DNA of 63,890 nt, counting the filler, from Octopus bimaculoides (lineage: Eukaryota): NCBI RefSeq assembly GCF_001194135.2. It is 9 parts of 9 records of this genome, joined end to end, with 100 filler letters (N's around TTAATTAATTAA, not from the genome) between each part and the next. Parts side by side here need not be neighbours in the genome. Positions count along the whole stretch, not along the records: positions 19,061 to 44,723 come from NC_068990.1; positions 44,824 to 48,384 come from NC_068983.1; 7 more parts are not named here. The stretch is one strand, 5' to 3'. This document shows, piece after piece, positions 20,630 to 45,688 of the stretch. How positions within the stretch are numbered: position 1 is the first letter of the stretch; each line of letters begins with the position of its first letter. The notes beneath the pieces are model-generated. The model worked only from the letters and a program-made list of their open reading frames with translations. It had not been told where the DNA came from and made no database searches. The position numbers were made by a program, and so were the translations under genes.

Positions 20630-20810
20630 TATATATATTTGGAATTTATGAAAAAACAAAACAAAAGATGAAGACAGGTGTGTAAACAACAAACAGATGT
20701 ATTAGTTTAACACTCAGGAAGTGAGAAAGTCTTTTACATTTCGAGCCTATGCTCTTCCACAGAAAGAAACACAGAAATAAACAGTGCGAGAAAATGAAAA
20801 AAGGTTTAGG
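20630..20810 (-). mobile_element. Penelope-like terminal repeat (family with copies at 40420-40570 and 45520-45690)
   Basis: Reverse complement aligns with 45520-45690 (GAAGAGC.TAGGCTCGAAA.GTAAAAGAC...AAACTAATACA...ACACCTGTCTTC.TCTTTTGTTTTG). Confidence 0.65.
20730..20767 (-). ncRNA. Hammerhead-like motif H4 (CUGU core variant)
   Basis: TCTTT-CTGTGGA-A-GAGC/ATAG/GCTC-GAAA-T-GT-A-AAAGA: 5-bp stem I, 4-bp stem II, GUA triplet, U at core position 6. Confidence 0.5.
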
Positions 20811-21109
20811 GACTACCCACAATCATTGCTTTTTTGTTCTTTTGTCTTTGTTGTTGTACCCATTCGCTTGCTTTCTCCCAAAATATTTAATGCTCTTAGC
20901 TTAGAATCTTGGGGCCAGCTAGATTTGAACAGTCTCAAGAGTAACTGGCTGAAATTGTAAGAATGATCGAGAAACTCAACTGATGAGAAAAGGCCATGAA
21001 TGGCCCTTCCTTGTTTTTTCCTGTCTGTCTTTGTATCGTGTATCTGTCCAGATGTTTTATTGTTGTTTGTTGCACTCTTGTTCCATTTTTTTTATTTATA
21101 TATAGATAC

Positions 21110-21720
21110 ATCATCATCATCATCATCATCGTTTAACGTCCGCTTTCCATGCTAGCATGGGTTGGACGATTTGACTGAGGACTGGTGAAACCGGATGGCA
21201 ACACCAGGCTCCAGTCTGATTTGGCAGAGTTTCTACAGCTGGATGCCCTTCCTAACGCCAACCACTCAGAGAGTGTAGTGGGTGCTTTTACGTGTCACCC
21301 GCACGAAAACGGCCACGCTCGAAATNNNNNNNNNNNNNNNNNNNNNNNNNNNNNNNNNNNNNNNNAGTCATCGCCTCGGTGAGGCCCAATGTATGAAGGT
21401 CTTGCCTCACCACCTCAGCCCAGGTCTTCCTGGGCCTACCTCTTCCACGGGTTCCCTCAACTGTTAGGGTGTGGCACTTTTTCACGCAGCTATCCTCCTC
21501 CATTCTCACCACATGTCCATACCAGCGCAATCGTCTCTCTTGCACGCCACAACTGATGCTTCTAATGTTCAGCTTTTCTCTCAAGATACTTACACTCTGA
21601 CGGGTATTCACATTGACATTACACATCCAACGGAGCATACTGGCTTCATTCCTTGCGAGCTTACGTATGTCCTCAGCAGTTACAGCCCATGTTTCACTGC
21701 CATGTAGCATGGTTGTTCTA
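21110..21720 (-). mobile_element. RTE-clade LINE 3' end with 3' UTR ending in (GAT)n
   Basis: [10 protein letters not shown]...ASMLRWMC...[22 protein letters not shown]...[13 protein letters not shown] (21366-21718), then the tail GGTTGGCGTTAGGAAGGGCATCCAGCTGTAGAAAC...GGACGTTAAACGATGATG. Confidence 0.92.
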
Positions 21721-21809
21721 CATACATATATATATGTATATGTGTGTGTGTGCGTGTGTGTGTGTGTATACATATAAATATATACATATATATACATACA
21801 TTCATACAT

Positions 21810-21895
<86 letters not shown>

Positions 21896-21920
21896 ATGTA
21901 TGTATATGTATATATATATA

Positions 21921-22126
21921 TATGAGGGGTTACTTTATAGGTATTGTGAAAGGCCTGGTTGGAGGCACAACCTTCCGAGACCTTTTACTGGGCTTAGAAA
22001 AACTGAAGGATCACTGCAATATGTGTGTGAATCTGAGAGGGGAATATGTTGAATAAAATCATAATTAACTGATCTTCCTGTATATTCTTTTATCCAAAGA
22101 CAAGAACTTTTCAGCACCCTCTCGTA
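21921..22126 (+). mobile_element. Internally deleted mariner derivative
   Basis: Ends TA(T/C)GAG(G/A)GG as an inverted pair. The interior encodes a mariner-type terminus ([10 protein letters not shown]). Confidence 0.6.
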
Positions 22127-22146
22127 TCGTATGTATATAAACAGAT

Positions 22147-22182
<36 letters not shown>

Positions 22183-22194
22183 ATATGTCATCAA

Positions 22195-22400
22195 CATCAT
22201 CATTACCATCTTTGATTAACATTTGTTTTCCCATGTTGGCATGAGTTGGATGGTTTGACAGGATCCACTGAGGCGTAAGGCTGTGTTGTGCTCTGTACTA
22301 GCTTTGGCATAGGTTCAATGGTTGAATGCCTCTCCTAATGTCAACCACTTTACAGTGTACTTTTCATGCCATCAGCACTTGAGGGGCTGCCAAGTAACTT
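22195..22400 (-). mobile_element. RTE-type 3' tail repeat, CpG-decayed
   Basis: Homologous to the tail at 21110-21325. Confidence 0.7.
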
Positions 22401-23268
22401 GTAGGATGTATCTATCTATCTATATATTTGTTTGTATATATGCATGTGTGTGTGTTTATGTGTGTGTACATGTACATATAGATACATATGTATGATACCT
22501 ACACACACACACACACACACATATGTATATATATTTGTATATATATGTGTGTGTGTATATATATATATATATNNNNNNNNNNNNNNNNNNNNNNNNNNNN
22601 NNNNNNNNNNNNNNNNNNNNNNNNNNNNNNNNNNNNNNNNNNNNNNNNNNNNNNNNNNNNNNNNNNNNNNNNNNNNNNNNNNNNNNNNNNNNNNNNNNNN
22701 NNNNNNNNNNNNNNNNNNNNNNNNNNNNNNNNNNNNNNNNNNNNNNNNNNNNNNNNNNNNNNNNNNNNNNNNNNNNNNNNNNNNNNNNNNNNNNNNNNNN
22801 NNNNNNNNNNNNNNNNNNNNNNNNNNNNNNNNNNNNNNNNNNNNNNNNNNNNNNNNNNNNNNNNNNNNNNNNNNNNNNNNNNNNNNNNNNNNNNNNNNNN
22901 NNNNNNNNNNNNNNNNNNNNNNNNNNNNNNNNNNNNNNNNNNNNNNNNNNNNNNNNNNNNNNNNNNNNNNNNNNNNNNNNNNNNNNNNNNNNNNNNNNNN
23001 NNNNNNNNNNNNNNNNNNNNNNNNNNNNNNNNNNNNNNNNNNNNNNNNNNNNNNNNNNNNNNNNNNNNNNNNNNNNNNNNNNNNNNNNNNNNNNNNNNNN
23101 NNNNNNNNNNNNNNNNNNNNNNNNNNNNNNNNNNNNNNNNNNNNNNNNNNNNNNNNNNNNNNNNNNNNNNNNNNNNNNNNNNNNNNNNNNNNNNNNNNNN
23201 NNNNNNNNNNNNNNNNNNNNNNNNNNNNNNNNNNNNNNNNNNNNNNNNNNNNNNNNNNNNNNNNNNNN

Positions 23269-23318
<50 letters not shown>

Positions 23319-23492
23319 GTACATACATACATATATGTTTACGTATAGTAGCCCATAACTATAATTATATTTTTATTATTATATACGTAAAAGAATTAAT
23401 GTTACCTAAACAGTAATTTTTAAGTGCTAGGCCAGTGATATAATCATTTTTATGATTATATCCTTATCTAATAAATATATATATATAATCTT

Positions 23493-23762
23493 TTATCTTT
23501 TACTTCTTTCAGTCATTTGACTGAGGCCATGCTGGGGCACCATCTTGAACGGTTTTTTGTTAAACAAATTGACTCCAGGACTTATTTGTTAAGCCTAGTA
23601 CTAATTCTATCAGCCACTTTTGCCAAACCTCTAAGTTACAGGCAAGTAAACATGTCAACACTGGTTGTCAAGTGGTGGTGGTGGGACAAACACAGACTCA
23701 AAGAGCCCCCCCCACCATATATNNNNNNNNNNGACAAACACAGACTCAAAGAGCCCCCCCCA

Positions 23763-23803
<41 letters not shown>

Positions 23804-23980
23804 CCACACACACACACACACACACATACATACATGACGGTCTTCTTTCAGCTTCCATCTACCAAATCCACTAACAAGGCTTTGATTGGCCTTAGGCTGT
23901 AGCAGAAGACACTTGCCATGCAGTAGGACTGAACCTAGAACCATGTGGTTGGGAAGCTTGCATTTTACCACACAGCTATG
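23493..23980 (-). mobile_element. SINE family A, degenerate, with internal microsatellite
   Basis: Tail at 23493-23700, (TA)/(CA) tract, head at 23835-23980. Confidence 0.85.
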
Positions 23981-23995
23981 TGTTTCTGTGTGAAG

Positions 23996-24058
<63 letters not shown>

Positions 24059-24179
24059 AGTCTGTCTGTCTGTCTGTCTGCATATCTATCTATCTACCAA
24101 TTTGTATTTGTCCCCTCTGTGTTTCAGCCCGGTGTGGCCAATAAATAAAGTTATATACCTATATATCTATATATACTAT

Positions 24180-24545
24180 CTGAACATGATTGATACCAGG
24201 ACTGCCCGACTGGCAGTGCCACCATGCTGTTGGCACAGAAAAAGCACCATCCGAATGTGACTGATGCCAGTACCCTCTGACTGGCTCCCATGCTGGTGGC
24301 ACATAAAAAGCACCATCTGAACGTGATTGATGCCAGGCCTGCTTGACTGGCTCCTGTGTTGGTGGCACATAAAAAGCACCCACTACACTCTTGGGGTGGT
24401 TGGCGTTAGGAAGGGCATCCAGCTGTAGAAACTCTGCCAGATCAGATTGGATTCTGGTGCAGCTGCTGGCTCTCCAGATCTCAGTCAAACCGTCCAACCC
24501 ATGACAGCATGGAAAACGGACATTAATCAATGATGATGATGATAT
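24180..24545 (+). mobile_element. RTE-type 3' tail preceded by a three-copy ~65-bp tandem repeat
   Basis: Repeated GGCAC(A/T)(G/T)AAAAAGCACC blocks, then GGTTGGCGTTAGGAAGGGCATCC...GGACATTAATCAATGATGATG. Confidence 0.8.
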
Positions 24546-24553
24546 ATATATAT

Positions 24554-24585
<32 letters not shown>

Positions 24586-24587
24586 GT

Positions 24588-24646
<59 letters not shown>

Positions 24647-25008
24647 GTATATGTCTTTCTTAAAATGGAAAATATGATTTTAATCTTAACTGTAATCCTT
24701 TTGATACTGCCACGTATGAGACTGCTTATATTTCTATCATACAAAAACAACTTACTGTAAATTCCTCTTCGCTCTCTAATACACATTTCAATTTTGCTAC
24801 TTAAATTATCTTAGAAACCTATAATACTATAATGCTACGCCTAGCACACAGTGTTACAGAATTGTTACAAGAGTAGATATTCTACTATTATCCAATACAT
24901 TAGATTTTTAAAATGTCATTTTATATAGAATATATTGATCTCCACTACCTCCTCTGTATCATGGCTTATGAACAGAAGAAGTCTTGTGGTGGATCATGGA
25001 TGGTTCAG

Positions 25009-25150
25009 TCATAGCTGTGTGGTTAAGAAACTTGCTTTGCAACCATGTGGTTTTGTGTTCAGTTTCTCTCTGTGGCACTTTGGGCAAATTTCTTCTACTA
25101 TAGTCCCAGGTCAACCGATGCCTTGTGAGTAAACACATTACACAGAAACT
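25009..25150 (+). mobile_element. SINE family A head
   Basis: GCTGTGTGGTTAAGAAACTTGC...GGCACTTTGGGCAAAT. Confidence 0.8.
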
Positions 25151-25579
25151 GTGTGGAAGCCTGCCACAGATACATAAATATATACATATATAATATTATA
25201 AATAATATATAAATATATATGCATATGTACATACACATATATATGTACACACATATATTTGTATATACGTGCACATATGGGCACAGGATACCACGGAACA
25301 TAAACAACATAAAATAAGCATAAAATACGAAAACAACATGAAACACGAAATATAACATGGAATATGAACCGTTTTTGTGAACAATGAAATAAACAAACGG
25401 AAAACAAGACAAGCAACATGAAAAAACGACCCTTCATCAGTTGTTGGCTGTTTTTGTACTCTGTATTTTGAGCATTTCACAAGATATGTTTTCGACATAA
25501 CAGTTGCTCCTGTAAATCAAATTAAATAAAATTTGGGATTTTTGTAGAGGGTTAAAGTTGGTGTATATATATATATATA

Positions 25580-25937
25580 CTCTTTATTCTTTTCCTTGTT
25601 TCAGTCTTTTGACTGTGGCCATGCTGGAGCACCGCCTTTAGTCGAGCANNNNNNNNNNNNNNNNNNNNNNNNNNNNNNNNNNNNNNNNNNNNNNNNNNNN
25701 NNNNNNNNNNNNNNNNNNNNNNNNNNNNNNNNNNNNNNNNNACAAACACATACACACATACATATATATATACATATATATGACGGGCTTCTTTCAGTTT
25801 CCGTCTACCAAATCCACTCACAAGGCTTTGGTCGGCCCGAGGCTATAGTAGAAGAGTCTTGCCCAAGATGCCATGTAGTGGGACTGAACTCGGGACCATG
25901 TGGTTGGTAAGCAAGCTACTTACCACACAGCCACTCC

Positions 25938-25938
<1 letters not shown>
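25580..25938 (-). mobile_element. SINE family A, gapped
   Basis: Tail end at 25580-25650 and head at 25778-25938. Confidence 0.85.
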
Positions 25939-25972
<34 letters not shown>

Positions 25973-25974
25973 AT

Positions 25975-26345
25975 GTTGAAGAGATTGGTATGAGTTGCCT
26001 TGTCTAGGTTTGCCTTCAGCACCTCCTTCACCAAGTTGAACGTTCCCCATCTTGCTCTTACCCTTCATGGGATCTCATTCTCCATCTCTCATCTCATAGT
26101 CACTTCATGACTGACATACACATAGCTGCTCATCTCTTCTATTTCATTGCCTCCGACTCTTAGGTGACCATTTGGTACGCCCTCACACCATACGTACTTG
26201 GTTTTTATATGGTTGATCTTCAGGCCAGTCACCAAACTCCTGAAATCCAGTTAGTCCAACATTGTTTGCAGCTGATGGGTGCTTTCCAGCATTAGTGCTA
26301 TGTCATCAGTAAATCTTAGATGGGTGAGCAGCTCGCTGTTTATCC
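25975..26345 (-). mobile_element. RTE LINE reverse-transcriptase fragment (inverted 5' segment)
   Basis: INSELLTHLRFTDDIALMLES...LQTMLD*L...TGLKINHIKTKY...RVRARWGTFNLVKEVLKANLDKATHTNLFN; HLRFTDD corresponds to the RTE HLRFADD motif. Confidence 0.85.
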
Positions 26346-26740
26346 TTATGCCTTGCTTGTAATGCTATATGCATGTGAGACTTGGGCCTTGATGAAGAGA
26401 GAAGAACAACATCTGCTTATGACACAGAGACACAGAAGCAGGGAATCGCGCTTAAAGATCACATCCGGAATGAGTAGATCAGGGATAGATAGAACAGGAG
26501 ATGAACACCATGATGATGTGGTATTCATCACAGAATACATGACATCATCGTGACATGAACTAGTTATGTTGCAAGGTTCACAGACAATTGGTGGACCTGT
26601 GCAGTTGCTGAGTGTTACCCGAGTGAACGGAAGAGACCACTCAGAAGTGCTCCAATCAGGTGGGTAGATGATCTAAGGAAGATGTTTAGAACAATGTAGA
26701 GGAGCTGACTTGGCACCAGATAGCCTGGCTGATTCAGGTG
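26346..26740 (+). mobile_element. RTE LINE 3' segment
   Basis: LVMLYACETWALMKREEQHLLMTQR...VARFTDNWWTCAVAECYPSERKRPLRSAPIRWVDDLRKMF. Confidence 0.85.
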
Positions 26741-26774
26741 ATATGTGTATGTATGTGTGTATGTACATATGTAT

Positions 26775-26985
26775 GTATATACAAATGTAGGTGTCTTTGT
26801 CTTCGTCTGCCTATCATTCGATAACCAATGACAGCTTGTTTATATTTGCATAGTCTAGTGTCTTGGCTAAGAAGACTGAAGTACCAAACTCAGAAAATAC
26901 ACACTGTAGCCGATTGCTTGACTGAACCCTTCAAGGCAGTACCCCAAGATGATCACAGTTCTAAGACTGAAACAAGTAAAAGATA
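26775..26985 (+). mobile_element. SINE family A tail, degenerate
   Basis: Ends CCCCAAGATGATCACAGTTCTAAGACTGAAACAAGTAAAAGATAAAA. Confidence 0.7.
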
Positions 26986-27344
26986 AAACATAAAAGAGAA
27001 AATGTAGGAAAACCTGCAGCCTTATAGCATCCATTATATGTACAGTGAATTTCAACTCTTGATTTTTGCGAACAGCAAAGAATGTATTATACATGGAGTT
27101 TTATGGTATTTTAAGTTGCAAATATTTAAATTAAAAGTGTCCATCATAATTTTATGTCAAAATGAGTTTTTGAAGTTATGTTCTAAATTTTAATAACGAC
27201 AACATTATTTCTTTCAAATGACTTAACTATTTTGAAATGGTTGCTTCAATAGATGAGAAATTATTAATTCATATTCTGTTGCTGATATTGCTCGAAGTTC
27301 ATAATCAAGATACTTAACCCTTACAACTGAATCCACAGGTGCAG

Positions 27345-27508
27345 GTATGACTGTGGTTAAGAAGTTTGCAACTGTGTGATTTCAAGTTCAGTCCTTCTGT
27401 ATGGCACCTTGGGCAAGTGTCTTCTGTTGTAGCTTCAGGCTGACCAATTCTTGTGAGTGATTTTGATAGACTGAAGCTGTGAAGAAGTCTGTTATACATA
27501 TGTGCATG

Positions 27509-27580
<72 letters not shown>

Positions 27581-27977
27581 GTTNNNNNNNNNNNNNNNNN
27601 NNNNNNNNNNNNNNNNNNNNNNNNNNNNNNNNNNNNNNNNNNNNNNNNNNNNNNNNNNNNNNNNNNNNNNNNNNNNNNNNNNNNNNNNNNNNNNNNNNNN
27701 NNNNNNNNNNNNNNNNNNNNNNNNNNNNNNNNNNNNNNNNNNNNNNNNNNNNNNNNNNNNNNNNNNNNNNNNNNNNNNNNNNNNNNNNNNNNNNNNNNNN
27801 NNNNNNNNNNNNNNNNNNNNNNNNNNNNNNNNNNNNNNNNNNNNNNNNNNNNNNNNNNNNNNNNNNNNNNNNNNNNNNNNNNNNNNNNNNNNNNNNNNNN
27901 NNNNNNNNNNNATATATATACACATATATATATATTTACACACACACACATATATATATATACACACACACATATAT

Positions 27978-28008
<31 letters not shown>

Positions 28009-28330
28009 TAAAATCAACCTACACACATTCACACACACCTTTCACCTTTAACCGCTCCTCCTATATATATGTATATATGTATATATATATATATATGAAT
28101 TTGGTGTGTATGTGTGCATGTGTGTGTATCTTAGTGTTTGTTCCTCCACCACTGCTTGAGAACTGATGTTGGTTTGTTTATGTCCTCTTAACATACTGGT
28201 TCTGCAAAAGAGACTGATAGAATAGGTTAGCAGACTTAACAAATAATTTCTGGGATCAACTTGCTAAAGCCTTCAAAGCAGTGCCCCAGCATGACCGCAG
28301 TCCAATGACTGAAAGAAGCAAAATATAAAC
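27345..28330 (+). mobile_element. SINE family A with a greatly expanded internal microsatellite (gap inside)
   Basis: Head at 27345-27500, (TA)(CAT)n and gap, tail at 28120-28330. Confidence 0.75.
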
Positions 28331-29649
28331 GACAAAAGACAACCTGCAACTTTGTTATAAAATTAACGAGTGAGTCAGGTCATAAACCATCAAAGCTAAA
28401 TACTACTGCATCATTTGTCCAGCATTTTAGCAAATTTGTCCTTTTAGGGATTTTCTCGGACTTAGAAGAAAAAATGTTGTTGGGATTTACTAGAGGCTAT
28501 ATTTATTCACCTTTTTGGATCTAATAAACTTCATTGCAAGACTAAGGATGGTTACATACACAAGATGTGTTATTTTCTGAATTTAATTCTGAAAAAACTT
28601 TCACCAGATCTTTGACTAAGATCATTATATACGGCTTCTTATTTGTTTCAAATTTTGGCATAAAACTAGAAATATTGGAAAGGAAAGTGTAATGATTACA
28701 TTGACCCCAGTGCTCAACTGGTATTCATTTTATCGGCTCTGAAAGGAATTTGAACTCAGAATGTAAAAATGGACAAAATGCCGCTAAGTGTTTTGCCCAG
28801 CATGTTAATAATTCTTTCATCTTGTCACCTTCATACACTATTTGATATTAGTAAAACCATTAAGAAGAGAAGGAAATGAGATTGTTTGAAGATATTTTTC
28901 ATCTTTCATAAGATCACGCAAACAGAGTAACTTAAGTAAATTGATTGCAGCTGAGAATCAAAACCACCCCATGAAACCTATTTTAGTGCAGAGGACTAAT
29001 ATTCATGAATTAAAATTTCTGGTGTTGCTACATTATTGTCTCAGGACTGGCAATGGTGGTAAGACTAGGTTTCAATGAGGAAAGTGGGGTAGGGATGGGG
29101 GTCTTATAAAGATGAAGCATAACTGAAGATGTCATTATATTATCAAAGATCAGACTCACACCTAAGTATTCGTTAAGCTCATGTTTTTTTCCCCTCCTTT
29201 TATTATAATTAATGAAAATTTCTTGGGTCGCTGCATTAAGTTTGTTAGTACTGACTTTACTATTTGCTTTTTATGCAGACAGTGTCCCCAGGTATTTTCT
29301 TCCTCAGTCATTGTTTCAAGTTATCACATCTCTCAGTGTTCATCCACCAACACATTACATATATTTCCAGTCATCGTAGGTCTGGCGACTGTGATAAAAC
29401 TAAGCTTCAGTGAGCTGGCAGTGACATATCTGGAGATGTCACATTATGGACAAAGAACAGACTCTTTTCTTAACGATTCATTAAGCTCATGATTTTTCTT
29501 TTTCTTCTCTACGGGTATAATTATTAATTAATTAAAAATTACTCAGCTAACTACTGTAAGTACATTAGCACTGACTTTACTAGACACTTATGGCTGAGAC
29601 TGTTCAATAATCAATATCAATATGTAGATGTTAGTCTCCTATTGTCTAG

Positions 29650-29670
29650 CTTGTAACATACCTGAATCAG
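29650..29670 (+). CDS. Candidate 21-nt microexon (phase 1 to phase 1)
   Basis: CTCCTATTGTCTAG|CTTGTAACATACCTGAATCAG|GTAATA; encodes ACNIPES and is phase-compatible with exon 31372. Confidence 0.3.
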
Positions 29671-30164
29671 GTAATACAATCAATTGAAAATCTATGAAGA
29701 GTGTCTCACATACTTTTATTATGCTGATTAGAGAAGAAAAGACAATGGCACTAATGGTTGCAGGAAATAAAGCAGAGCTGAGAATAAAAGAAAAATGTCT
29801 TTTTTTCTTCCTTTTTTCACCCATTGATAATAATTGATCTAATTGACTATATTATTGGTACTTATTGTATTGATTCTCACAAGGTAGAGTAGATCCAGTA
29901 GGAGTTTGAAATCAGAACTATAAAGTATTAGATTGTCTAATTTTAAACTTTTTACATCATTTCAAGTTTTAAATATTTGAGTTTGTGATTGGCCTAAAGT
30001 TCCAGATATTTAGCATAAAGATTTTAAGTTGGTTCTTTTGTGAATAGCATTTTGCATTGTCTATTGGAAAAGTATTTCATTTTCGTTTTCCTTGTGAATG
30101 ACATACTTTTTTTGAATAAAACTGAGGCTTTTCGTTGTTAATTAACCAAAGGTCACCTTGACAA

Positions 30165-30575: not shown

Positions 30576-30619
30576 AAAAAAGGACAAGAGATATTGGTTA
30601 GTCTACATTACTCCATAAG

Positions 30620-31238: not shown

Positions 31239-31371
31239 TAGAAAATATTATATTTTGTGTAGGTATCTTTGTACATGCTAAATATTACTATGTGAAAATG
31301 ATATTTTTTGTGTAGATATCTGTGTAAATATCATGTATTACTATGTATCAAAATCATATATTTTTGTACAG

Positions 31372-31612
31372 ATATCTTTGTAAACAGAACATATTGCTAT
31401 GCAGACAATATAGCAATCACAGTTTTAAATTTGGTTAAATACATACTAAACTGTCTTCTTGTGAAAAATATTCCAGCTTCATGTGATATTGTGCTGATCA
31501 ATACTGGGATAACTGACCCTCTGGTAATGAAGAAGAACTCCTCATCAGTTATTCAAGATATATCTACAGATGTAGAGGTTTCTCCTCAACAGGAACTTGT
31601 ATTACTTAAAAG
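31372..31612 (+). CDS. Coding exon of an unidentified gene (phase 1 to phase 2)
   Basis: TTTTTGTACAG acceptor, AAAG|GTAAGC donor, 241-nt open frame IFVNRTYCYADNIAITVLNLVKYILNCLLVKNIPASCDIVLINTGITDPLVMKKNSSSVIQDISTDVEVSPQQELVLLK. Joins in frame to 34199. Confidence 0.75.
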
Positions 31613-33199
31613 GTAAGCTGGCTGGGGTATAGTAAATATCCAATTGTATATATTTTTATGTATTTGAAATAGAAGTTTATAGTATCTGAATATATATCTG
31701 AATATAGATTGCAAATTATATCTAAAAATGAAGACCACCTGAATAGCCTCGGGCTAAACAGAAATGGTGGTAACCTTAAAAAAGAATTTTTTTTCTTTTC
31801 CTCTTATTATGTTATTATGAAGAAAACTCTTTTACTGAATGGTCAAATAAGAAGAAGACATTGCTTTTCTTTCTTTCTTTTCTTTTAATAACCAGGTACA
31901 AGCAATTTTTTTATTGAGCAGAGATATAAACAATGGTTTTAAGTTTTGGTAGAAGGCCAGCTATTTTAGCAGAGGCGTTAGTCAATTTTATTAACCCCAG
32001 TGTTCAACTGGTACTTATAATGTTGATTCTGAGAGATAATATTTATTCCCACTTTAACATGGATGTTTTCTTAGAACAATATTTACTGTGGTATTTACCA
32101 TGAGAGAAACACTCATATGGGCTTTTGGTGCAGAATGCACGCCTATTTGTTTATATCACCTGTGGTGAGATATAGATTTATCTCCTCACAGGTGATATAA
32201 ACAAACAGTCAAGATTTTTCTAACAGAACACCCACATTTAAATGAGGAATAAATATTAGCTCTCAGTATCTGTACTGCCTCTGTTGCTAATATATATCAT
32301 TGATTCTGAAAAGACAAAAGGCAAATTTGATCTCAATGAGATTTGAACTCAGAACATAAAGAGCTGGAAGAAATGCCACCAAGCAATTTGTCTGATGTGT
32401 TAATGATTCTGCCATCTTGCCATCTTTCGCCTTCTCTCATTTTTTGGAAACATTGAAATGCAAAGTAAACTGCTGTGGAATTTAAACTTTGAATGTATTG
32501 CATTGAGATTCAATTCTGAAAGATATTTAGTCTGTTGCTCTAACATTTTTCTAATTTTCCACCATAAGAAGAGATCCATCCATCCATCTGTCCTTCCTTC
32601 CTTCCTTCCTTCCCTCCATCCATCCATTGTTACTTCTCACTATTCCTGAAAGGGTCATGGTGGGTAAGAATCCCCAGGCACCTTATCCATCAGGTCTTAT
32701 CATAAATAACCTTATTACACATACTGTTTGATTCTGATGGAGTGTCAGTTATAATAGACCACTGACAGGCATGTTGCTGCAGCTTTTATCTGAGATAAAA
32801 TCTGTTATTAGTATGCTGGGCTAAAATACACAATGTGTGTGTATATATATATATATCAGAGGAAGAAAATCATCCTAACAGAGGCAATCAAAAACATCAG
32901 AAATATTCCAGTTTGATTGGGCCTTGTCAACAATGTGCACTTTCAGCTTTATACATAGAAGAAATTTGTCTCCCTCTGATATAGGAAATAGTGGATAACA
33001 CTTTCACTGATATTAGAAGTAGCTGCTGAGCTGAATAAAAATACAGGGTACCCAATTAAAGCAACATTAAATTAAAATAGCCATCTATGTATTGTACTTA
33101 ATGTATATACACCATTGAAAGGCAAGATACTGCAGTTTTTGTCTGAGATAAAAATCTCTTATAAGCATGCTAGGTTAAAAAACACAATATACATATAGG

Positions 33200-33510: not shown

Positions 33511-33511
33511 C

Positions 33512-33542
<31 letters not shown>

Positions 33543-34107: not shown

Positions 34108-34151
<44 letters not shown>

Positions 34152-34198
34152 CAAGAATGATATATACAGATGTCTTACCTTTTAAATGTGTTTTTCAG

Positions 34199-34353
34199 AC
34201 AAATAAAAGAGTTTCAATTAATAGAGTATGAAATAAACCAAAAGATTCATTTTAATCCATGGGAAGAAAAAATTCAGGATATAAGTTGCAGTGAAAACAA
34301 GAAGATGAGCCAAACAACCAACAATATGAATTGTATTAACAACAATCCACAAG
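34199..34353 (+). CDS. Coding exon of the same gene (phase 2 to phase 1)
   Basis: GTGTTTTTCAG acceptor, CAAG|GTATG donor; (R)QIKEFQLIEYEINQKIHFNPWEEKIQDISCSENKKMSQTTNNMNCINNNPQ. Confidence 0.75.
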
Positions 34354-34587
34354 GTATGCCATGATTTTATTTTATTTTATAAAACCCCTTATAAAATCCC
34401 TTATTAAAAACATATCGGAGGAAGACAAAATATCATCCAAGCAACAGTTAATGAAAAACCCAGGTGCATTTCACCATTTGCTACCAGGATAATTTTCTTC
34501 TCTCTCTTATATATATTGTTCTTTTTTAACAAATCATGCTTATAAGAGAAATTACTGGCTTTGTGCCAAAATTCGAAGCCATTATTA

Positions 34588-35424: not shown

Positions 35425-35630
35425 ATCAACATCATCATCATCATCATCATCTTCATCATCTTCATCATCATCATCATCATCTTCGTCATCATAATCATTA
35501 CCATCACCATCATTATTGTCATCCTCATCATTGTTGTTATCATCATCATCATCATCATCATGATCCATCATTATCATCATCAACATTGTAACTGTCATCG
35601 CCATCATCATCATCATCATCATCATCTACT
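35425..35630. repeat. (CAT)n array
   Basis: Directly visible. Confidence 0.95.
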
Positions 35631-36239: not shown

Positions 36240-36400
36240 TAGGCATAACTATGTGCTTAAGAAGTTTGGTTCTTGACCATGTGGTTTTGGATTGCATGGA
36301 ATCTTGCACAGGCGTCTTCTGCTGCAGTCTCAGGCTGACCAAAACCTTGTGAGTTGATCAGGTAGATAAAAACTGAAAGAAGCGCAATATGTGTGTACGC
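36240..36400 (+). mobile_element. SINE family A head, degenerate
   Basis: AGGCATAACTATGTGCTTAAGAAG...GACCAAAACCTTGTGAG...AAAACTGAAAGAAGC. Confidence 0.7.
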
Positions 36401-36464
36401 GTGTGTGTATATGGCTTTGTTAGTTTATATATGTGTGTATGTGTGTATATGTGTGTATATGTGT

Positions 36465-36800
36465 TGGAGACCCCCTTCAGTCACGAATGACCATGGGATT
36501 GCACCTAGAAAGTTACCCTCTGAGGCACAAGTCTGGGAAAGGTTGTTTATGGAAGACCAGCAGTTGCCCATGCATACCAGCCTCCCCTCTCCACACCACT
36601 GATGTTATCCAAGGGAAAGGCAAAGGGGCCGATACAGTTTGGCACCAGTGGTGTCACAACTCATTTCTACAGCTGAGTGAACAGGAGCAACGTGAAATAA
36701 AGTGTCTTGTTCAAGAATACAACATGCAGCCTGGTCTGGGATTCCAACTCACAACCTCATGGCCATAAGCTCTACACTCTAACTACTGAGCCATGTGCCT
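36465..36800 (-). mobile_element. SINE family D
   Basis: Homologous to 33200-33510. Confidence 0.85.
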
Positions 36801-37394
36801 TCACATATGTGTATATGTGTGTATATGAATATATGTGTATATATGTGTATATATGTATGTGTAGGTATGTGTGTATATGTATGTATATGTGTGAATATAT
36901 GTGTGTATATGTGTATATATGTGTGTACATATGGCTTTGTGTCTTCCAAGAAATATGGAATAAGAAATCTTTTTCTTGAAAAACAGGTTAGTGTTAGTGA
37001 CAGGAAATGCATCCAGCTGTAAAACAATACTTCAATAATATATCCATCTAACCCATGCTAGCATGGAAAAATGGATCTAAAATGAACTAATTCCATGAAC
37101 AGATAGTTTTGAATACTGATTTGTAGTGCTGTGTACTGTTTTAATTCTCCTGTAAATTATCAAAGACATGAAGAGTCCTACAAGAAACTTTAATTTCATA
37201 GACTCAAGGTTGGGATTTGATAGAATGAGCAGAGTACTGTGTAAAATGCTTTGCAGTATTTGGTTGTGTCTTTTTACATTCTGAGTTCAACTCCGACCAA
37301 AATCAACTTTGCCTTTTCATCTTCCAGAATCATTAAAGTAAGAATCAATCAAATCCTGAGATCAATATTCTTTTATTCTTTTATTTGAAGTTAC

Positions 37395-37639
37395 AGAGGA
37401 TGTAAATACACCAACACCTGTTGTGTTGATGGGGGGACAAACACAGACACACAAACAAATGCAGACACACACACACACATATATATACATATATATATAT
37501 GGGCAAAACTACGTGGACATTCCGGATTTCAACTGAATGATCCATATATCTTGATTTGTCCTGTTTGCCATTGTTGTGCTTTCGTTCTTTTCCTGCATGT
37601 TGTGTTTTGACAGTTTCCACTTGTGTTTTTTTCTGTTCT

Positions 37640-37680
<41 letters not shown>

Positions 37681-37975
37681 NNNNNNNNNNNNNNNNNNNN
37701 NNNNNNNNNNNNNNNNNNNNNNNNNNNNNNNNNNNNNNNNNNNNNNNNNNNNNNNNNNNNNNNNNNNNNNNNNNNNNNNNNNNNNNNNNNNNNNNNNTAT
37801 ATATATATATATTGACAGGTTTCTTTCAGTTTCCATCTACCAAATCCACTTACAAGGCTTTTGGTCGGCCCAAGGCTATAGTAGAAGACACTTATCAAAG
37901 ATGCCATACAGTGTGACTGAACCCGGAGCCATGTGGTTAGTAAGGAAGCTACTTACCACATAGCCACTCCTACAC
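37395..37975 (-). mobile_element. SINE family A pieces separated by (CT)n and a gap
   Basis: Partial tail at 37395-37470 and head at 37810-37975. Confidence 0.7.
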
Positions 37976-38469
37976 CTATCTTGTGAATATAATCAATCAC
38001 ATTCACAAAATTGATGGCCTTGAAACTAAAGTACAAACGATTATGTTCTGAGTTCAAATCCTGCCGAGGTCAACTTTGCCATTCATCCTTTTCAAGTCAA
38101 TGAAATAAAAAATCAGTCAATTACTGGGGTGTGGTGAGATGCGATGCAATCGACTTGCTCTTCCCCACTCAAAATTGCTGGCTTTGTGCCAAAATTAGAA
38201 AGTATTATTATTAAAGACATGTCTGAAATAGCATGGCAATTATTCCCACAGTGATTTATGCTGACAGTTAATCAATCAATCAATCAATCAATCAATGATA
38301 CATCTTCGGTTAACAGTTAAGTCACTCATGGCTATGCTTAGCATTTCTACATTTGAAGAATACTTGTTAGCTCTTGCTTTGAATATATGCACATATTACA
38401 GAACTATATATCTGAGGTCTTTATTTTCCTTTATGTTTTTCATAAAGATTAGGATGTATAAAATAAAGA

Positions 38470-39140
38470 TTATTTGCTAACATAATGTGGCAGTCCCAGT
38501 TGGGGCAAATATTACTGTTATCTAGCTCCAGGAAACATTGTCTCCAGCTGACTATATGACACACTATCTGTGTCCTTATATTTTCAAGCAGGGGAGTTTA
38601 GCATCCTCACACAGCACAAAGCAATATCTGCAGACCACGGTTTCTGGGTTATTTCATTTCCTCGGCACAGAAAAACTGCCCAGCTAGAGGAGGCGTTGCT
38701 AAATCCTTGTTCGAAAATATATATAATTTTCAAAGTGACACATAACCACTGATCCAATAAATAGAAACATGATTATTTCTAAATCCTTCAATGAGAGACA
38801 TTCAGTAACAGTAATTTAAAGTAAAGAGTATTTGCCAACATAATTTGGCAGTCCCAGTTGGGGCAAATATTACTGTTATCTAGCCCCAGGAAACATTGTC
38901 TTCAGGTGGCTATATGACACACTATCTGTGTCCTTATATTTTCGAGCAGCACAAAGCAATATCTGTGGACCATGGTTTCTGCGTTATTTCTCTTCCGTGG
39001 CACAGAACCAGCTGGAGATGATGTTTTTTGGGGCTAAATAACAGTAACATTCTTCCTAACCAGGATTGCCATGTTATGTTGGCAAATAGTCTTTACTCTA
39101 GAGTACTGTCACTGAATGTCTCTCATTGAGAGATTTTGAA
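38470..39140. mobile_element. Repeat with ~200-bp direct duplication plus ~60-bp inverted arms (Penelope-like arrangement)
   Basis: 38475-38680 matches 38833-39020; 38787-38842 is the reverse complement of about 39074-39131. Confidence 0.55.
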
Positions 39141-39599
39141 CTAATAATGTTTCTATTTCTTAGAATGTATACTTAGAAAGAAAATCTATTGCGCATAAAC
39201 AAAACTTTATATAAGACACTTGTGCTTGCCCCTCTCATATCTTTTACTCTCTCAATACCTGGCATAAAGTCACCCCCTATTCTCAAATACCCTCCCCCCA
39301 TTTCTCACACTTAGTCAAGGTGGTGGAGTTTCTGTTCTTTTCCTGTCTTGCAAATTACTTGGTGATATCACTGTTGTCATCTTTGTCGTCGTTGTCGTCA
39401 TCGCCGTCGTCGTCGCTGCCGTCGCCGTCATTGTCGTCGTCGTCATCAACATCTCTTAATTGATGCAGACAGTTTCTGGAGTGCAGCTCTTGATGTTTTA
39501 TTAGTTAGCTGTTGCCACTGATCTCTGTTTTCTGCACTGTGACCTGTCCAAGGGAGTTGTGGTACGACAAATGACCATACCAGACAAGTTTTTGTCTTT

Positions 39600-39900
39600 T
39601 TTACCTGCGCCAGGAGTGGTTCCTGTCTGCCAGTATATTTGTTGACTTGCTGCCAGACAAAAGCTGTTTGTTTTGTGCTCTGTGTATGGGATGTGAAGTA
39701 GCCTCATGAAGCACTTGTTCTCAAATGCACAGTAAAATGTTTGGTATTAGAAAGGGCATCCAGCCATAGAAACTATGCCAAAGCTGACAATGGAGCTCGA
39801 TGCAGTTCTGCAGCTCATTGTATCTTGTCAAACTGTCCAACCCATGCCAGCATGAAAAACGGACATTAAATGAGGAAGATGATGATGATGATGATGATGG
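39600..39900 (+). mobile_element. RTE-type 3' tail repeat ending in (GAT)n
   Basis: GTATTAGAAAGGGCATCCAGCCATAGAAAC...CCCATGCCAGCATGAAAAACGGACATTAAATGAGGAAGATGATG. Another copy at about 40105-40370. Confidence 0.75.
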
Positions 39901-40509
39901 TGGTGGTTGTGGTGGTGGTGGTGGTGGTATAGCAGATGTCAGAGATTGATTCATTATTCTGTTATTATATCATCTTGTTTCGGGATGAGGGTAGCTTAGT
40001 TGGCTAAGACAAATGACTGACAGGAGTAACATTCATATCTGGTTACCAACATTTCATTGTCCATAAGCAAGAGATGCCTGTATGTGTATATGTGTGTGTG
40101 TGTGTGTGTATCCTTGACTTGATATCACGTGATGGTTGTAAATGAGCGTAACCATTATACAAGCAATGTTATTTGTTTCCATTCTTCTGAGAAAAACATG
40201 TCTGTTTCAAGGGAATTATACCTTGCTTGGAAACAGGTGAGGATTGGTGACAGGAAGGGCATCCATCCATAGAAGTCTGCCTCAACAAATTCTATCTGAC
40301 ATAAGCAAGTATGGAAAAATATGATAATGATGATGATGAAAATGATGATGATGATGATGATGAGGAAGTATGGATAGCATGTCTGTTTATTTATCTGGCA
40401 TAAAATTGTAGAGAAAAAAAACAAAACAAAACAAAAAAGACAAAAGACAGGCAGCTGAGGGAATGACAAACAAGGCGTATTAGCTTGATGCTCGAGAGAA
40501 ATGGAAGAG

Positions 40510-40547
40510 TCTTTGATGTTTTGAGCGTATGCTCTCCTACAGAAAGG
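40510..40547 (-). ncRNA. Degenerate hammerhead-like motif H5 (CUGU family)
   Basis: CCTTT-CTGTAGG-A-GAGC/ATAC/GCTC-AAAA-C-AT-C-AAAG. Stems are retained but core positions 9, 12 and 16.2 are mutated. Confidence 0.35.
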
Positions 40548-40870
40548 AACGAGGAAAGAAAACAGATGGAGGAAGGAAAAAAGGAATGAAATATGGTACT
40601 TTATCATATTTACAAATGCTTTCTGGTCAAGACAACATGCCTTCTTTCATCTACCTTTCAGGAAATTTTTAACTAAGCTTTTGTAGGAAAGATATGTACA
40701 AATGTTAGTCATCGTATACCGAGGTAGATTTATCCTTCATGTACTTATGATTATAGAAGCTAAAGTTTTAAGCATTGACATAACTGAGTTTCTTTATAAT
40801 TCATGAATGTATTGATTTATAAATGTCATTTTATATGACAAAATAACTTATTGAGTTTTATTTATCATAG

Positions 40871-40932
40871 TTTCAGATCTTTCAAGTAGTAAACCTGCAT
40901 GTTTAGAGGAGAGCAGCAACAGAAGGCTTCAA
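40871..40932 (+). CDS. Coding exon of the same gene (phase 1 to phase 0)
   Basis: TTTTATTTATCATAG acceptor (alternative in-frame TTTCAG at 40876), CAA|GTAAAT donor; (V)SDLSSSKPACLEESSNRRLQ. Confidence 0.6.
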
Positions 40933-41676
40933 GTAAATATGATTCTTCAGTATTTTAACTGCTATTGTTGTTGTTTAACCCCGGGTTAGTCCTGGTCAAG
41001 CAGACTTTCTGATCAAAAACATTCTACCCATGACTATCTCTTATCTTCGGTATAGAAATCTCAAAAGACTGAAACAAAAATTTAGAAATGTAGTTCTTTT
41101 TCTCTTATATATGGATAAATGAAGGTGCGTGGCTTAGTGGTTAGGGCATTCGGCTCACGATCATAAAGCACTTCCCTTCCACTATAGCCTTGAGCCAAAC
41201 AAAACCTTATGACAATAAATTTTCAGTTATTCAATCAATAAAACACCCTACTTAATGAATTCATGTGTAAATGGCTGAATACTCCATTGATACATCTACT
41301 TCTTATATAATTTTCAATCAGTATCACCGTGACACAGTATAAGAAAGATGGAACCATAAATTAAATTGAAAGTGTAATACATTCAGGGGGCTTCTACACA
41401 GTTTCCTCCCAACTTAAATTTCCTCATGAAGCTTGGATCAACCTGAGATTGTGCCAAAAGATGTATGCATAAGATGCCGCACAGTGGGGTCAAACCAAAG
41501 ACTTTATGATTGTAAATTAGACTTTATAAGCATTTGGTTACTGTAGAAAACACTCAATGTATTGTGGGTTCAGTTTCCACTGTGTGACATGTCTTTTATT
41601 CTTGCTCTGGGCCAACCAAAGCCAGGTGAGTGGGTTTGGTAGACATTAAATGAAAGATGTCCATTGTGTATATTAT

Positions 41677-41714
<38 letters not shown>

Positions 41715-41724
<10 letters not shown>

Positions 41725-43254
41725 CCATGCAAATAGCTTTGGAGTGAAATTTAAGATTTCTTGGTTTCTGTGAATCAATTTTGATGAAACATTTCCCAGC
41801 TGGTTTGCAACACTATGGCAGCACCATGGCAACACTATGGCAACACCATTGTTATGGTTTCATTATTCTGTGTAATGCCCTTTCCTTTTTATTTCAGATT
41901 CTTCAGTTTTTGGGTGAACCACGCTAACAGAGTCTCTCCTCTCTAAGAACAATGGGACATGGAAAAGGTCTTAATGATGAAGAAAAGTCTGTCATCATCA
42001 AGGAAAGTGGTAAAGGCATCTCTCTTCATGTCATTGCAGAGGAATTAGGTTGTCATGTGGATACGGTTAGATGATTCCTGAAGGAACTTTTGCCAAGGAA
42101 GAAACGATCCGATTGTAGGACCTCCGAGATGGTGACAGCTAGGGATTTAAGGAATATTGGCTGCAAGGTACTTGGGAAACCTGGACAAATAAGCAAAGCT
42201 ATTTTCACCACCTCTGAACTTCCTCATGTATTGAAAACAACCAGAAATCACAGCCTTGGGATCATGGCTTCCATGCGAGAACCCCTAAAACTGTCTCCTC
42301 ACAAGAGTTCATGGCTTCATTGGACCCAAAAGTACAGGATGTTAGACATGAGTTGTGTTCTATTCACTGATGAAACCAGGGTGACTCTTGATGAACCTGA
42401 CAGTTTGGAAAATGGTTGCGTCTATTTTGGAGACGATCATCACCAACGTTTACGATGTCAACAACAGGGTAGAGGTGTCATGTTGGAGGCTGATATCATT
42501 GGGGACAGACTTGTTGGCCCAGTCAGGGTTTCTGAAGGGGTTAAAGTAACCACAGCTGCTTACTGCAATCCCCTGAAGGAGGTCTTAGATCCCTGGCTAG
42601 ATGACATACCACTGTCACTTTTAAGAGATTTTGTATTCATACATGACAATGCTCCCTCCCACTCTGTTAGGACCACCCAAACACAACTAGGGTCTTACAG
42701 CATACATGGTGAAAGGTTGATGGTGTAGCCACCAGCATTTCTGGTCCATCATTAAACAAAATGTTTATGCTGATGGACGCCAATTTATGTTGAAAGGTGT
42801 CTTATGGGTGACCATCAAAGCTGCAGCAGAAGCAATCCAACCTGCTACTAGTTAGAAATTGACAGATTCCATGACTAATCGAGTTTTTGAAGTTATCCAT
42901 CGAAATGGTGCTCGTGTGGTAAAATAATTCATTATGTCAATAAGTGTTATAACATTATTATGGACTTCTGCTAAGTATATACTCAATGTATGCTTAATAT
43001 GTATCATTAGCCTTCATTTTCTGAAAAACAAATGTCTAGATGGGCTATTTTCATTTGAAAGCTTTTAGCATGGTTCACCCAAAAACTGAAGAGTCTGAAA
43101 TGAAAAAGAAAGGATGTTACACAGAATAATAAAAACATAACAATGGTGTTGCCATCGTGTGCAAACCAGCTGGGAAATGTTTTATCAAAGTTTATTCACA
43201 GAAAACCAAGAAATCCTAAATCTTACTCCTAAGCTATTAGTATGGTTCTGGGTG
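41715..43254 (+). mobile_element. Tc1-like DNA transposon with ~200-bp TIRs, decayed (probably DD37E/TRT group)
   Basis: 41723-41927 is the reverse complement of 43066-43247. The right end abuts TA at 43255-43256; the left end is obscured by (CA)n. Confidence 0.9.
41952..42927 (+). pseudogene. Tc1 transposase pseudogene
   Basis: N-terminal HTH (ISLHVIAEELGCHVDTVR), VLFTDETRVTLD, RCQQQGRGVM, FIHDNAPSH. Contains stops, a frameshift, and a deletion of the SPDLNPIE block after *PPA. Confidence 0.9.
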
Positions 43255-43588
43255 TATATTATATATATATATGTATATATATATATTATATAAAGGATGA
43301 AATCATTCATGATTTCATCAGGTGGTCAGCACGAAAATAAAAACCATATAAGTAAATTTTCTAAATATATTAATGATTATATACATAATTATAACAGGGG
43401 ATCAGCAATATGCCTCACCATGCACTGAAAATACATGCCAAATGATGCTAAAATCACCTTATAAAACTCCGCAAACACAGGTTGTAGTCAAGCAAAAGAA
43501 AGATAATAAATTAAACTCTCGGCAAATCGTGTATAAGATCTCATTTCAGGCTTAAAGTAAAAAATACTTACTGCCATCTTCAGCATAG

Positions 43589-43632
43589 ATACTCCATAGT
43601 ATAAATACAGAAAATCTGTGCAAAAGAGGGCA
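43589..43632 (+). CDS. Candidate further exon (phase 0 to phase 2)
   Basis: CATCTTCAGCATAG acceptor and strong CA|GTAAGTAT donor; ILHSINTENLCKRG. Phase-compatible with 40932. Confidence 0.35.
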
Positions 43633-43650
43633 GTAAGTATCTTTTACTTT

Positions 43651-44333
43651 TGTGGTGCGATGGAGGAAGAAGACAACAAGAAGCAAAAGGACAGAATGAA
43701 GCGTTGGACCTTACCTTGCCGACCGCAGCGGGGTACACGATCGCTCCTAATCAGAACACGTCTTTCTCATAACGTCGCTGTTTTCTCACTGGCCCCACGT
43801 GCTAGCCTTCGGCCGCGTGTCACCGACTTCCGATCTGACCCTTCCGGTTTGGCCCTTCCANNNNNNNNNNNNNNNNNNNNNNNNNNNNNNNNNNNNNNNN
43901 NNNNNNNNNNNNNNNNNNNNNNNNNNNNNNNNNNNNNNNNNNNNNNNNNNNNTAATCAGCCAACCAGGGAGGAGGGTACCGCTCCCTCTGTGGTCGCTGT
44001 GCGACCCCGGGACTGGCCTGAGTTCCTGGCGCGCTACCTTCATCATCTTGCCTACTGCTGCTGTCTTCATCATCCTGCCCACTGCAGCTGGTTCCATCCT
44101 CTGAAGCACTGACAATCTTCCGCACATCCAAAACATGGCGTGGCATACCATCGACTGAGACGTTGTTTTTTGAATTGATGGAGGTTATAGTTCCTTTCCC
44201 CCATTGTGATGTGCACCGTGCATTTGGGGGTTTTACCCAAACTTCTTTCCGGATCTGCACGAAGGTGTGCTCTTCTTCTCCCTGGAATCGCATTGATGCA
44301 ATACACGGGTGCCTCCACTCGTACCTGAATATT
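43651..44333 (-). mobile_element. Ty3/Gypsy retrotransposon: integrase C-terminus plus 3' LTR, gapped
   Basis: EVWVKPPNARCTSQWGKGTITSINSKNNVSVDGMPRHVLDVR...RPQRERYPPPWLAD is a typical integrase tail. The downstream GC-richer block ends in CACCACA at 43651. Confidence 0.75.
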
Positions 44334-44433
44334 NNNNNNNNNNNNNNNNNNNNNNNNNNNNNNNNNNNNNNNNNNNNNNNNNNNNNNNNNNNNNNNNNNN
44401 NNNNNNNNNNNNNNNNNNNNNNNNNNNNNNNNN

Positions 44434-44723
44434 CCTCTGTTTGCGTCCTTGTGCCTTTGTTTGCGTCCTTGTGTCTCTGTTTGTGTCCTTCTGCCTCTGT
44501 TTGCGTCCTTCTGCCCCTGTTTGCATCCTTCTGTCTATGTTGGCCTCCTTCTGCCTCTGTTTTTGTCCTTGTGCCTCTGTTTGCGTCCTTGTGCCTCTCT
44601 TTGCGTCCTTCTGCCTCTGTTTTTGTCCTTGTGCCTCTGTTTCCGTCCTTCTGCCTCTATTTCCGTCCTTGTGTATCTGTTTGCGTCCTTGTGCCTCTGT
44701 TTGCTTCCTTGTGCTTCTGTTTG
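44434..44723. repeat. Minisatellite, 20-bp unit (TTGCGTCCTT(G/C)TGCCTCTGT), about 14 copies
   Basis: Directly visible periodicity between two gaps. Confidence 0.95.
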
Positions 44724-44823
44724 NNNNNNNNNNNNNNNNNNNNNNNNNNNNNNNNNNNNNNNNNNNNTTAATTAATTAANNNNNNNNNNNNNNNNNNNNN
44801 NNNNNNNNNNNNNNNNNNNNNNN

Positions 44824-44865
<42 letters not shown>

Positions 44866-45291
44866 GAAGCATAATATATGGATTCATATAATCGTGTAGT
44901 GATACAAAAAAGCTCCTTTAATGGACCCGACTACACACCACATAGTAAACCGTAGGAGTATAATGTAGAGTCCTAAGCAGTTGAAATCTAGTGAATCCAA
45001 TCTGTAAAAATTATTTCATAAGGGGTATATAGAACATAAAGAAATTCAGGAGGTGCTATTCAGAAGGTGTGAGATGAATACATTTATTTCACCAGTTGAT
45101 ATCCATAAGATGACGGCCACTGTGCACCAAATATCGCGCAAAGATAATTTACTTTTAGAGGATAATAAATTATTTTACATGTCAGCGCTTGTATGCGTGA
45201 TATAGATTGCATAGTATTATTTTACACTTTACAAAACAATGCAGATATAGAAGGCTAGCCTTTCCGATCGACAGAATCTTGTATTACATCA

Positions 45292-45322
<31 letters not shown>

Positions 45323-45332
45323 NNNNNNNNNN

Positions 45333-45688
45333 CTCACACCCGACCCGCCGTTTCCCATCACCTACCACCCCTCCACCCTTCCCCTGCCCCTCCAACTCAC
45401 CATTCTCCGTGTCTTCGGCGAATCCAGTCCGACTCCTTCACCTCGCACATCTTCCTCAACCTACCCCTTCTCCTTTCTAATTTTTTTCTAATCATTTGCC
45501 ATGCTTGACCGCTAACCTACAAAATTTTTTCTTCATTCTCTCTTTGTTTATTTTCTCTTGTTCCTTTCTGTTGAAGAGCGTAGGCTCGAAAGGTAAAAGA
45601 CATTTTCATTTTCCTGAGCGTCAAACTAATACACTTGTTTGTTGTTCATACACCTGTCTTCGTCTTTTGTTTTGCTATAAATTTCAAC

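Follow-up and report, generated by a model that had tools for sequence, protein, structure and literature searches.

We found that a stretch of 63,890 nucleotides (nt), filler included, of Octopus bimaculoides DNA (NCBI RefSeq assembly GCF_001194135.2; nine parts joined end to end, hereafter the window) carries three copies of a repeat, here H4, H5 and H6, each of which contains a hammerhead ribozyme motif with U instead of A at position 6 of the core. To judge from its sequence, the repeat probably derives from a Neptune-type Penelope-like retroelement (PLE), of which it would be the 3' terminal repeat. Ribozyme and retroelement are both of known kinds, and U6 is a family-wide variant of the core. 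The account that we favour, and to which we give somewhat better than even chances, is that of a Neptune-like terminal hammerhead in which U6 has become fixed while the fold is still maintained, and which would act as a weak, dimer-dependent or protein-assisted cutter. The three copies and their hammerhead motifs are located as follows.

45525..45690, plus strand: H6 repeat body, with a U-rich 5' flank, the hammerhead and a conserved 3' tail ending in (TA)n.
45564..45599, plus strand: H6 minimal type I hammerhead motif, core CUGUUGA; stem I 45564-67/45596-99, C3 at 45568, U6 at 45571, N7 at 45572, an extra A at 45575, stem II 45576-87, G12 at 45588, H17 at 45595, predicted cleavage after 45595.
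20604..20802, minus strand: H4 repeat body, 82% identical to H6, ending in (TA)n beside an N gap.
20731..20766, minus strand: H4 hammerhead motif, core CUGUGGA; U6 at 20759, N7 is G, H17 is A at 20735, and 15.1-16.1 within the motif is AUGU (CpG-type decay).
40423..40584, minus strand: H5 repeat body, 71% identical to H4.
40511..40546, minus strand: H5 hammerhead motif, core CUGUAGG; U6 at 40539, with A9>G, G12>A and G16.2>A, predicted dead.

The preliminary description of this DNA had proposed a three-copy repeat family with U6 in every core, and both parts are borne out, since the three represent divergent copies of a single repeat of ~165-200 nt (self-BLAST identity of 82% over 204 nt for H4/H6 and 71% over ~160 nt for H4/H5) and U6 was found in the motifs of 3/3 copies. 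Stem I (CUUU/AAAG) and stem II (GAGC/GCUC, with the loops AUAG, AUAC and GUAG) are likewise present in H4, H5 and H6 as described, the stems pair in all copies (stem I 4-5 bp, stem II 4 bp), and each copy has one extra A after position 9. The two copies said to retain GAAA and GUA are H4 and H6, in which C3, U4, G5, G8, A9, G12, A13, A14, A15.1-U16.1 and H17 are all kept; A9 and G12 are lost in H5. Positions 15.1-16.1 read AUGU, ACAU and AGGU in H4, H5 and H6, and because none of them keeps the palindromic ACGU, each window copy appears to have decayed individually, with CpG-type transitions making up two of the three 15.1-16.1 changes as well as loop and G12 changes. The hammerhead-like folds have energies of -5.5 to -7.5 kcal/mol, above those of the minimum free energy folds (-9.1 to -14). 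Upon applying a strict hammerhead descriptor with position 6 left free to both strands of the whole window, we obtained two matches, H4 and H6, both with U6. The canonical core CUGANGA with A6 is absent from 3/3 copies, and the consensus core CUGANGAH of minimal hammerhead ribozymes (min-HHRs) is not matched (CUGUNGAA). On 45480-45690, none of the 3 Rfam matches at E<=10 is a hammerhead, nor is any of the 150 listed of 309 matches for the whole window, the listed matches being only of a microsatellite-driven, microRNA type. An alternative register with a UUGAAGA core was rejected, as its stem II is unpaired and it is absent from H4.

Next, we investigated the state of position 6 across the family. 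Four public runs carrying three species labels were aligned to positions 45400-45689 (H6) at >=80% likeness, namely a raw RNA run of organism A (X21; ~6% of the run read, 2,227 reads aligned) and three sets of DNA contigs, from organism A (X1; 8,759 aligned), organism B (X10; 16,272) and organism C (X11; 14,917). The family is very large, with many thousands of distinct contigs per run; the depth on the motif relative to that of the edge bin is 6e4 to 3e5 in these runs, which is a depth and no copy number. Figures for variant letters refer throughout to 40 of 203 rows that were listed, and among these rows, in the four runs, we observe no alternative letter at 45571, which is position 6. Among 20 of the 40 listed rows that were recomputed, low ones included, no best-run share falls below 0.238 and four rows lie at 0.238-0.240, which suggests that the rows are ranked by share with a floor near 24%. 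From this apparent ranking and the absence of 45571, we infer that A6, like any other alternative to U, stays under ~24% in every run, a bound and not a count. Furthermore, had A turned to T independently in each of the three copies at this position, the rough probability would be 2e-4 to 4e-3. The earlier proposal that the shared U6 is ancestral to the family and not coincidental is therefore upheld, by 3/3 window copies and by the lack of any other letter at 45571 among the listed rows, and U6 would be the majority state of the family. The opposite explanation, in which the family consensus is really A6 and the U6 seen here is coincidental or belongs to a minority, can appeal to the indirect nature of this bound, as the row for 45571 is among the 163/203 not listed, and to a canonical A6 motif with an identical stem II at 6973 in the same window. 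It is nevertheless very improbable in our judgement, given the U in 3/3 copies at the chance just stated, the expectation that an A majority would stand among the highest-share rows, where the alignment is deepest, and the flanks of the 6973 motif, which are unrelated to those of H4-H6. The latter motif is a separate feature.

6943..6977, minus strand: minimal hammerhead with canonical A6 (CUGAUGA), an extra A, a GAGC/GCUC stem II, ACGU, and G at position 17.

It provides a canonical hammerhead for comparison within the window. Its flanks show no BLAST similarity to H4-H6, and a KLDTL motif at 7130-7180, ~200 nt upstream of it, resembles what we take to be the C-terminus of a Penelope-like open reading frame (ORF); this hammerhead probably belongs to a second, canonical PLE family.

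We also examined the sequence upstream of H6 for the parent element, where one further feature is found.

45333..45530, plus strand: frameshifted ORF remnant with by-eye likeness to the region following the reverse transcriptase (RT) domain, the post-RT region, of Neptune-clade PLEs.

Of the full-length Penelope RT/GIY-YIG ORF that the preliminary description proposed to look for, a putative part is seen: a Neptune-like remnant of ~200 nt lies upstream of H6, in which no RT core, Zn-finger-like linker or GIY-YIG endonuclease was found. The remnant, ahead of which lie a 10-N gap and (TA)n, shows in three frames and in order PF..TYHP, IL..F, D..T.HIF...PL..S and NL.NF. The pattern TY[HN]P was found once in the window's six frames, ~200 nt upstream of H6. 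The same ordered motifs are seen by eye in the Neptune1_Ap row of the supplement alignment of PMC8557442. In a full Neptune element, a Zn-finger-like linker and a GIY-YIG endonuclease follow the post-RT region; here the remnant passes straight into the U-rich flank of H6 with no endonuclease part between. Since diverged contigs of all three DNA runs span it (7/24 listed contigs, with 22-37 differing letters, which start at 45473-45494 and run through the motif), the junction between remnant and hammerhead is not private to H6, and the endonuclease-less junction at 45473-45530 possibly marks an internally deleted non-autonomous subfamily. The depth upstream of 45530 is about one thousandth of that on the motif, and this is also roughly where H4 and H5 start; most copies would thus be short 3' pieces. 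The Neptune-clade trait of insertion at microsatellites with a hammerhead in the 3' terminal repeat agrees with the (TA)n context observed here: (TA)n stands at both ends of H6, with the 10-N gap on the 5' side, and at the end of H4, and the 3' loose ends of the family in contigs of the public runs continue into TA repeats. A phmmer match of the remnant (P0001, E=6e-4) is to a repetitive protein and was rejected as spurious.

When examining variation within the motif, we observe that, among the listed rows, family-level variants occur only at N7 and H17. At N7, U>G occurs in 381/1,667 RNA reads (X21) and at 14-24% in the DNA runs, and U>A in 24/1,667 reads, at 2.5% in X1 and at 23-26% in X10 and X11. 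At H17, A>U occurs in 548/1,584 RNA reads and at 22-46% in the DNA runs, with no G listed. For G8, G12 and the other core positions no common variant is listed across the three species labels, and the published min-HHR consensus leaves N7 and H17 free (PMC4209133). The three N7 states are unattainable by CpG decay and therefore likely reflect subfamily masters. Additionally, position 15.2, which is G in H6, is C in the family majority (1,235/1,595 RNA reads, 77%; 84-92% in DNA), and this restores the palindromic ACGU. Two variable sites would both land among the 7 free positions of the 36-nt motif with a chance of 0.033, and core and stem positions contain 0/29 variable sites vs 16/124 in the flanks (Fisher p=0.043), a flank count from which three or four H6-private differences were dropped and in which one borderline site (45531) was kept. 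Depth peaks on the motif in the DNA runs, at 3-6x that of the 45640-49 bin and 12-30x that of the 45540-49 and 45610-19 bins, and reaches 1,686 at the motif vs 826 in the RNA run, and the loose-end consensus lines have differing flank variants attached to an identical motif. The alternatives proposed at the outset, a tolerated variant or a family that amplified after losing cleavage, are in our view the right pair; the data are suggestive of constraint on the fold, towards which they lean modestly, and do not separate weak cleavage from none.

In the RNA run X21, ~7-12% of reads carry altered forms within 45594-45608, namely one A inserted behind 45594 or 45599, or else a differing sequence behind 45598. 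These forms are rare in the DNA contig tables and probably derive from one or a few highly expressed copies, or from a subfamily with an altered stem I. X21 gave no sign of a discrete family transcript.

Upon comparison with known systems, the family is closest in form to the min-HHRs of Cervera and De la Peña 2014 (PMC4209133), with which it shares a U-rich 5' flank, a short stem I, an extra nucleotide between 9 and 10.1, G10.1-C11.1, a palindromic 15.2-16.2 without loop III, a UH cleavage site and an occurrence mostly as dispersed singles. All listed features match except the core, which is CUGUNGA in the family and CUGANGA in the min-HHRs; compared with the Schistosoma min-HHRs, which have larger stems, stem II has only 4 bp (PMC4209133). 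In the available part of that paper U3-A8 is the only core change named, and the 3 'CUGU' matches in its supplement all lie outside the core. A natural substitution at position 6 is known from the Bcep176 phage, whose A6C hammerhead has low but detectable cleavage (Perreault et al. 2011, PMC3088659); that case is a single phage motif with C, whereas here U recurs in a family that counts many thousands of copies and appears under three animal species labels. The likeness to Neptune PLEs (Craig et al. 2021, PMC8557442) extends to the post-RT motifs recognised by eye, the (TA)n microsatellite context and the hammerhead near the 3' end, the difference being that the RT core, Zn-finger-like linker and GIY-YIG endonuclease were not found here and the remnant abuts the hammerhead flank. 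As with PAc, the Poseidon hammerhead of Anolis carolinensis (PMC11167929), genomic copies span the cleavage site and RNA-seq shows no ends there; for PAc, however, protein-assisted cleavage has been demonstrated and tested with C3/G8 mutants, whereas any cleavage by H4-H6 is predicted. Animal non-LTR (long terminal repeat) retrozymes (PMC7229834; bioRxiv 10.64898/2026.07.22.740005) are also short non-autonomous hammerhead repeats linked to PLEs, but they are tandem units with >=2 complete motifs. H4, H5 and H6 are dispersed single copies, 5-20 kb apart and on both strands of this window, in which no tandem units with >=2 complete hammerheads were found; a 900-nt self-BLAST found no tandem or inverted partner beside any of the three, N gaps adjoining H4 and H6. 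PLEs make up 6.83% of the O. vulgaris genome according to PMC13282606, the available part of which does not mention ribozymes.

The account that we favour can be set out as follows. A minimal hammerhead with U6 would act as a weak, dimer-dependent or protein-assisted cutter, dimers folding via the palindromic ACGU, and its fold would be kept under selection in the replicating (master) lineage. The element protein would copy uncleaved RNA, as may be supposed because every genomic copy spans the cleavage site; a slow core would then be of little cost and might increase the proportion of intact template, and single copies, once inserted, would decay neutrally, mostly at CpG sites. Low activity of the U6 motif is to be expected because mutations of A6 lower activity in other hammerheads. 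The min-HHRs of PLEs are inactive as monomers and weak as dimers (PMC4209133), and the hammerhead of a lizard Poseidon element depends on the element protein for cleavage, its catalytic mutants being without effect on insertion in vitro (PMC11167929). That the motif is a functional natural U6 hammerhead, selected across related species as a slow or protein-switched Neptune-type ribozyme, we put forward tentatively and at well under even chances.

Several points weigh against a maintained and weakly cutting fold. Of the single and double CUGA-turn mutants scanned in a type III hammerhead, all but the C3-G8 swap have low activity (PMC9901934), and the natural A6C variant cleaves at <0.1/min (PMC3088659). 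Taken as a whole, the motif is not significantly more conserved than its surroundings (2/36 variable sites vs 16/124 in the flanks, p=0.37), and the conservation statistics are altogether weak, the sites being non-independent and the contig depth shares skewed. The depth peak is partly due to H6's own mutations at 45602-45615, and the lead in conservation that the motif holds over the 3' flank among the window copies is modest (H6/H4 identity of 33/36 in the motif vs 33/40 and 40/45 in the flank; H6/H5 identity of 28/36 vs 33/41). Furthermore, X21 shows neither a pile-up of ends at the cleavage site nor a strand bias, although this test is insensitive, as a standard complementary DNA library and dispersed copies may hide RNA ends. 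The single frames of the ORF remnant have no significant match (none in Pfam, none at E<=10 in the word index, none in the ESM Atlas), and there may be a minor A6 subfamily, either under ~24% or >20% diverged from H6.

Some of these points would suit a dead relic, in which A6U abolished cleavage in the master. The family would have amplified all the same, having no need of cleavage, and the motif would survive through descent or as a structure bound by protein. The strong loss of activity upon A6 changes in other hammerheads, the missing RNA ends in X21 and the non-significant whole-motif test all fit this reading, as do the dispensability of hammerhead catalysis for Poseidon insertion in vitro and the proliferation of Naiad elements without canonical hammerheads. 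We nevertheless regard it as unlikely, if far from negligible, given that the common variants listed occur only at N7 and H17, that H17 alternates between A and U with no G listed, as a cleavage constraint predicts, and that no common variant is listed for G8, G12 and the other core positions under three species labels. A fully active variant, in which the dimer context or unrecognised tertiary contacts offset U6 so that cleavage is as fast as in A6 minimal hammerheads, is less probable by far. The apparent fixation of U6 while the neighbouring N7 switches among three letters speaks in its favour, and PMC3088659 suggests that distal contacts may offset variant cores; yet the full double-mutant scan of the type III hammerhead found no positive epistasis in the CUGA turn besides C3-G8 (PMC9901934), no compensating core change is visible in the window copies, and even canonical minimal hammerheads are slow (PMC4209133).

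Beyond this genome, a natural U6 hammerhead core was not found in the literature, octopus Penelope hammerheads included, in a search that did not cover Lünse et al. 2017, whose title points to many small PLE hammerhead variants; CUGU has no match in the available part of the PMC8557442 supplement. No match to the family patterns, with positions 6-7 free, was found in collections of viral, metagenome or prokaryote genomes. When the U6 patterns were loosened, we obtained 118 metagenome loci (22/64 parts scanned) and 120 viral loci (45/64 parts). Among the viral loci, 0/120 have both stems of >=3 bp plus a cleavable H17. Among the metagenome loci, 2/118 have GU directly after GAAAC but no more than 1-2 bp in stem I, and a further 4 have a stem I of 4-6 bp and a longer stem III region; these loci were treated as chance matches. 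An AT-rich metagenome contig (L103:301-338, plus strand) combines CUGUGGA with an extra A, a GAGA/UCUC stem and GAAACGUC, with a stem I of only 2 bp, which is possibly a U6-type motif in another organism, or chance.

Microsatellites and N gaps abound in the window, which is animal DNA. The suggestion that H4 and H5 lie antisense within introns of a gene stands as far as the strands are concerned, as both are on the minus strand, but no exon is identifiable. On the plus strand, frames flanked by splice-like borders are seen near 14.5-14.9, 29.0, 31.5, 34.2 and 47.1 kb. Exon-like frames on this strand, some of them with such borders, span 14445-14898, 28890-29075, 31302-31613, 34161-34361 and 46982-47278 and suggest a plus-strand gene, to which no Pfam or ESM Atlas assignment could be given; if this gene is real and reaches 47 kb, H6 would be intronic too, in sense. 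Decayed frames at 21369-21730 (minus strand), 26320-26696 (plus) and 53439-53839 (plus) resemble reverse transcriptase C-termini of long interspersed nuclear elements (RTE/CR1-type), those scanned having no Pfam match, and the frames at 42075-42728 (plus) and 52021-52410 (minus) look like Tc1/mariner transposase remnants, the 42075 frame again having no Pfam match. A tandem array of alternating 25/22/25-nt units, interrupted by N gaps, occupies 48429-50485. Finally, two inverted repeat pairs, 1581-1962/30668-31046 (92-94% similar) and 12167-12326/13384-13543 (90%), are probably elements resembling short interspersed nuclear elements or other dispersed elements.

Position A6 is treated as invariant and the quoted hammerhead descriptors require CUGANGA, so a family of this kind would be missed by ribozyme censuses. 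A functional U6 motif would rank with the most abundant ribozyme motifs of these genomes while remaining invisible to CUGANGA-based searches. Hammerheads may serve PLEs in processing or regulation or may be passengers, and the U6 family offers a natural test case for their role, being very abundant and combining an apparently fixed core change with variation, among the listed rows, only at N7 and H17.

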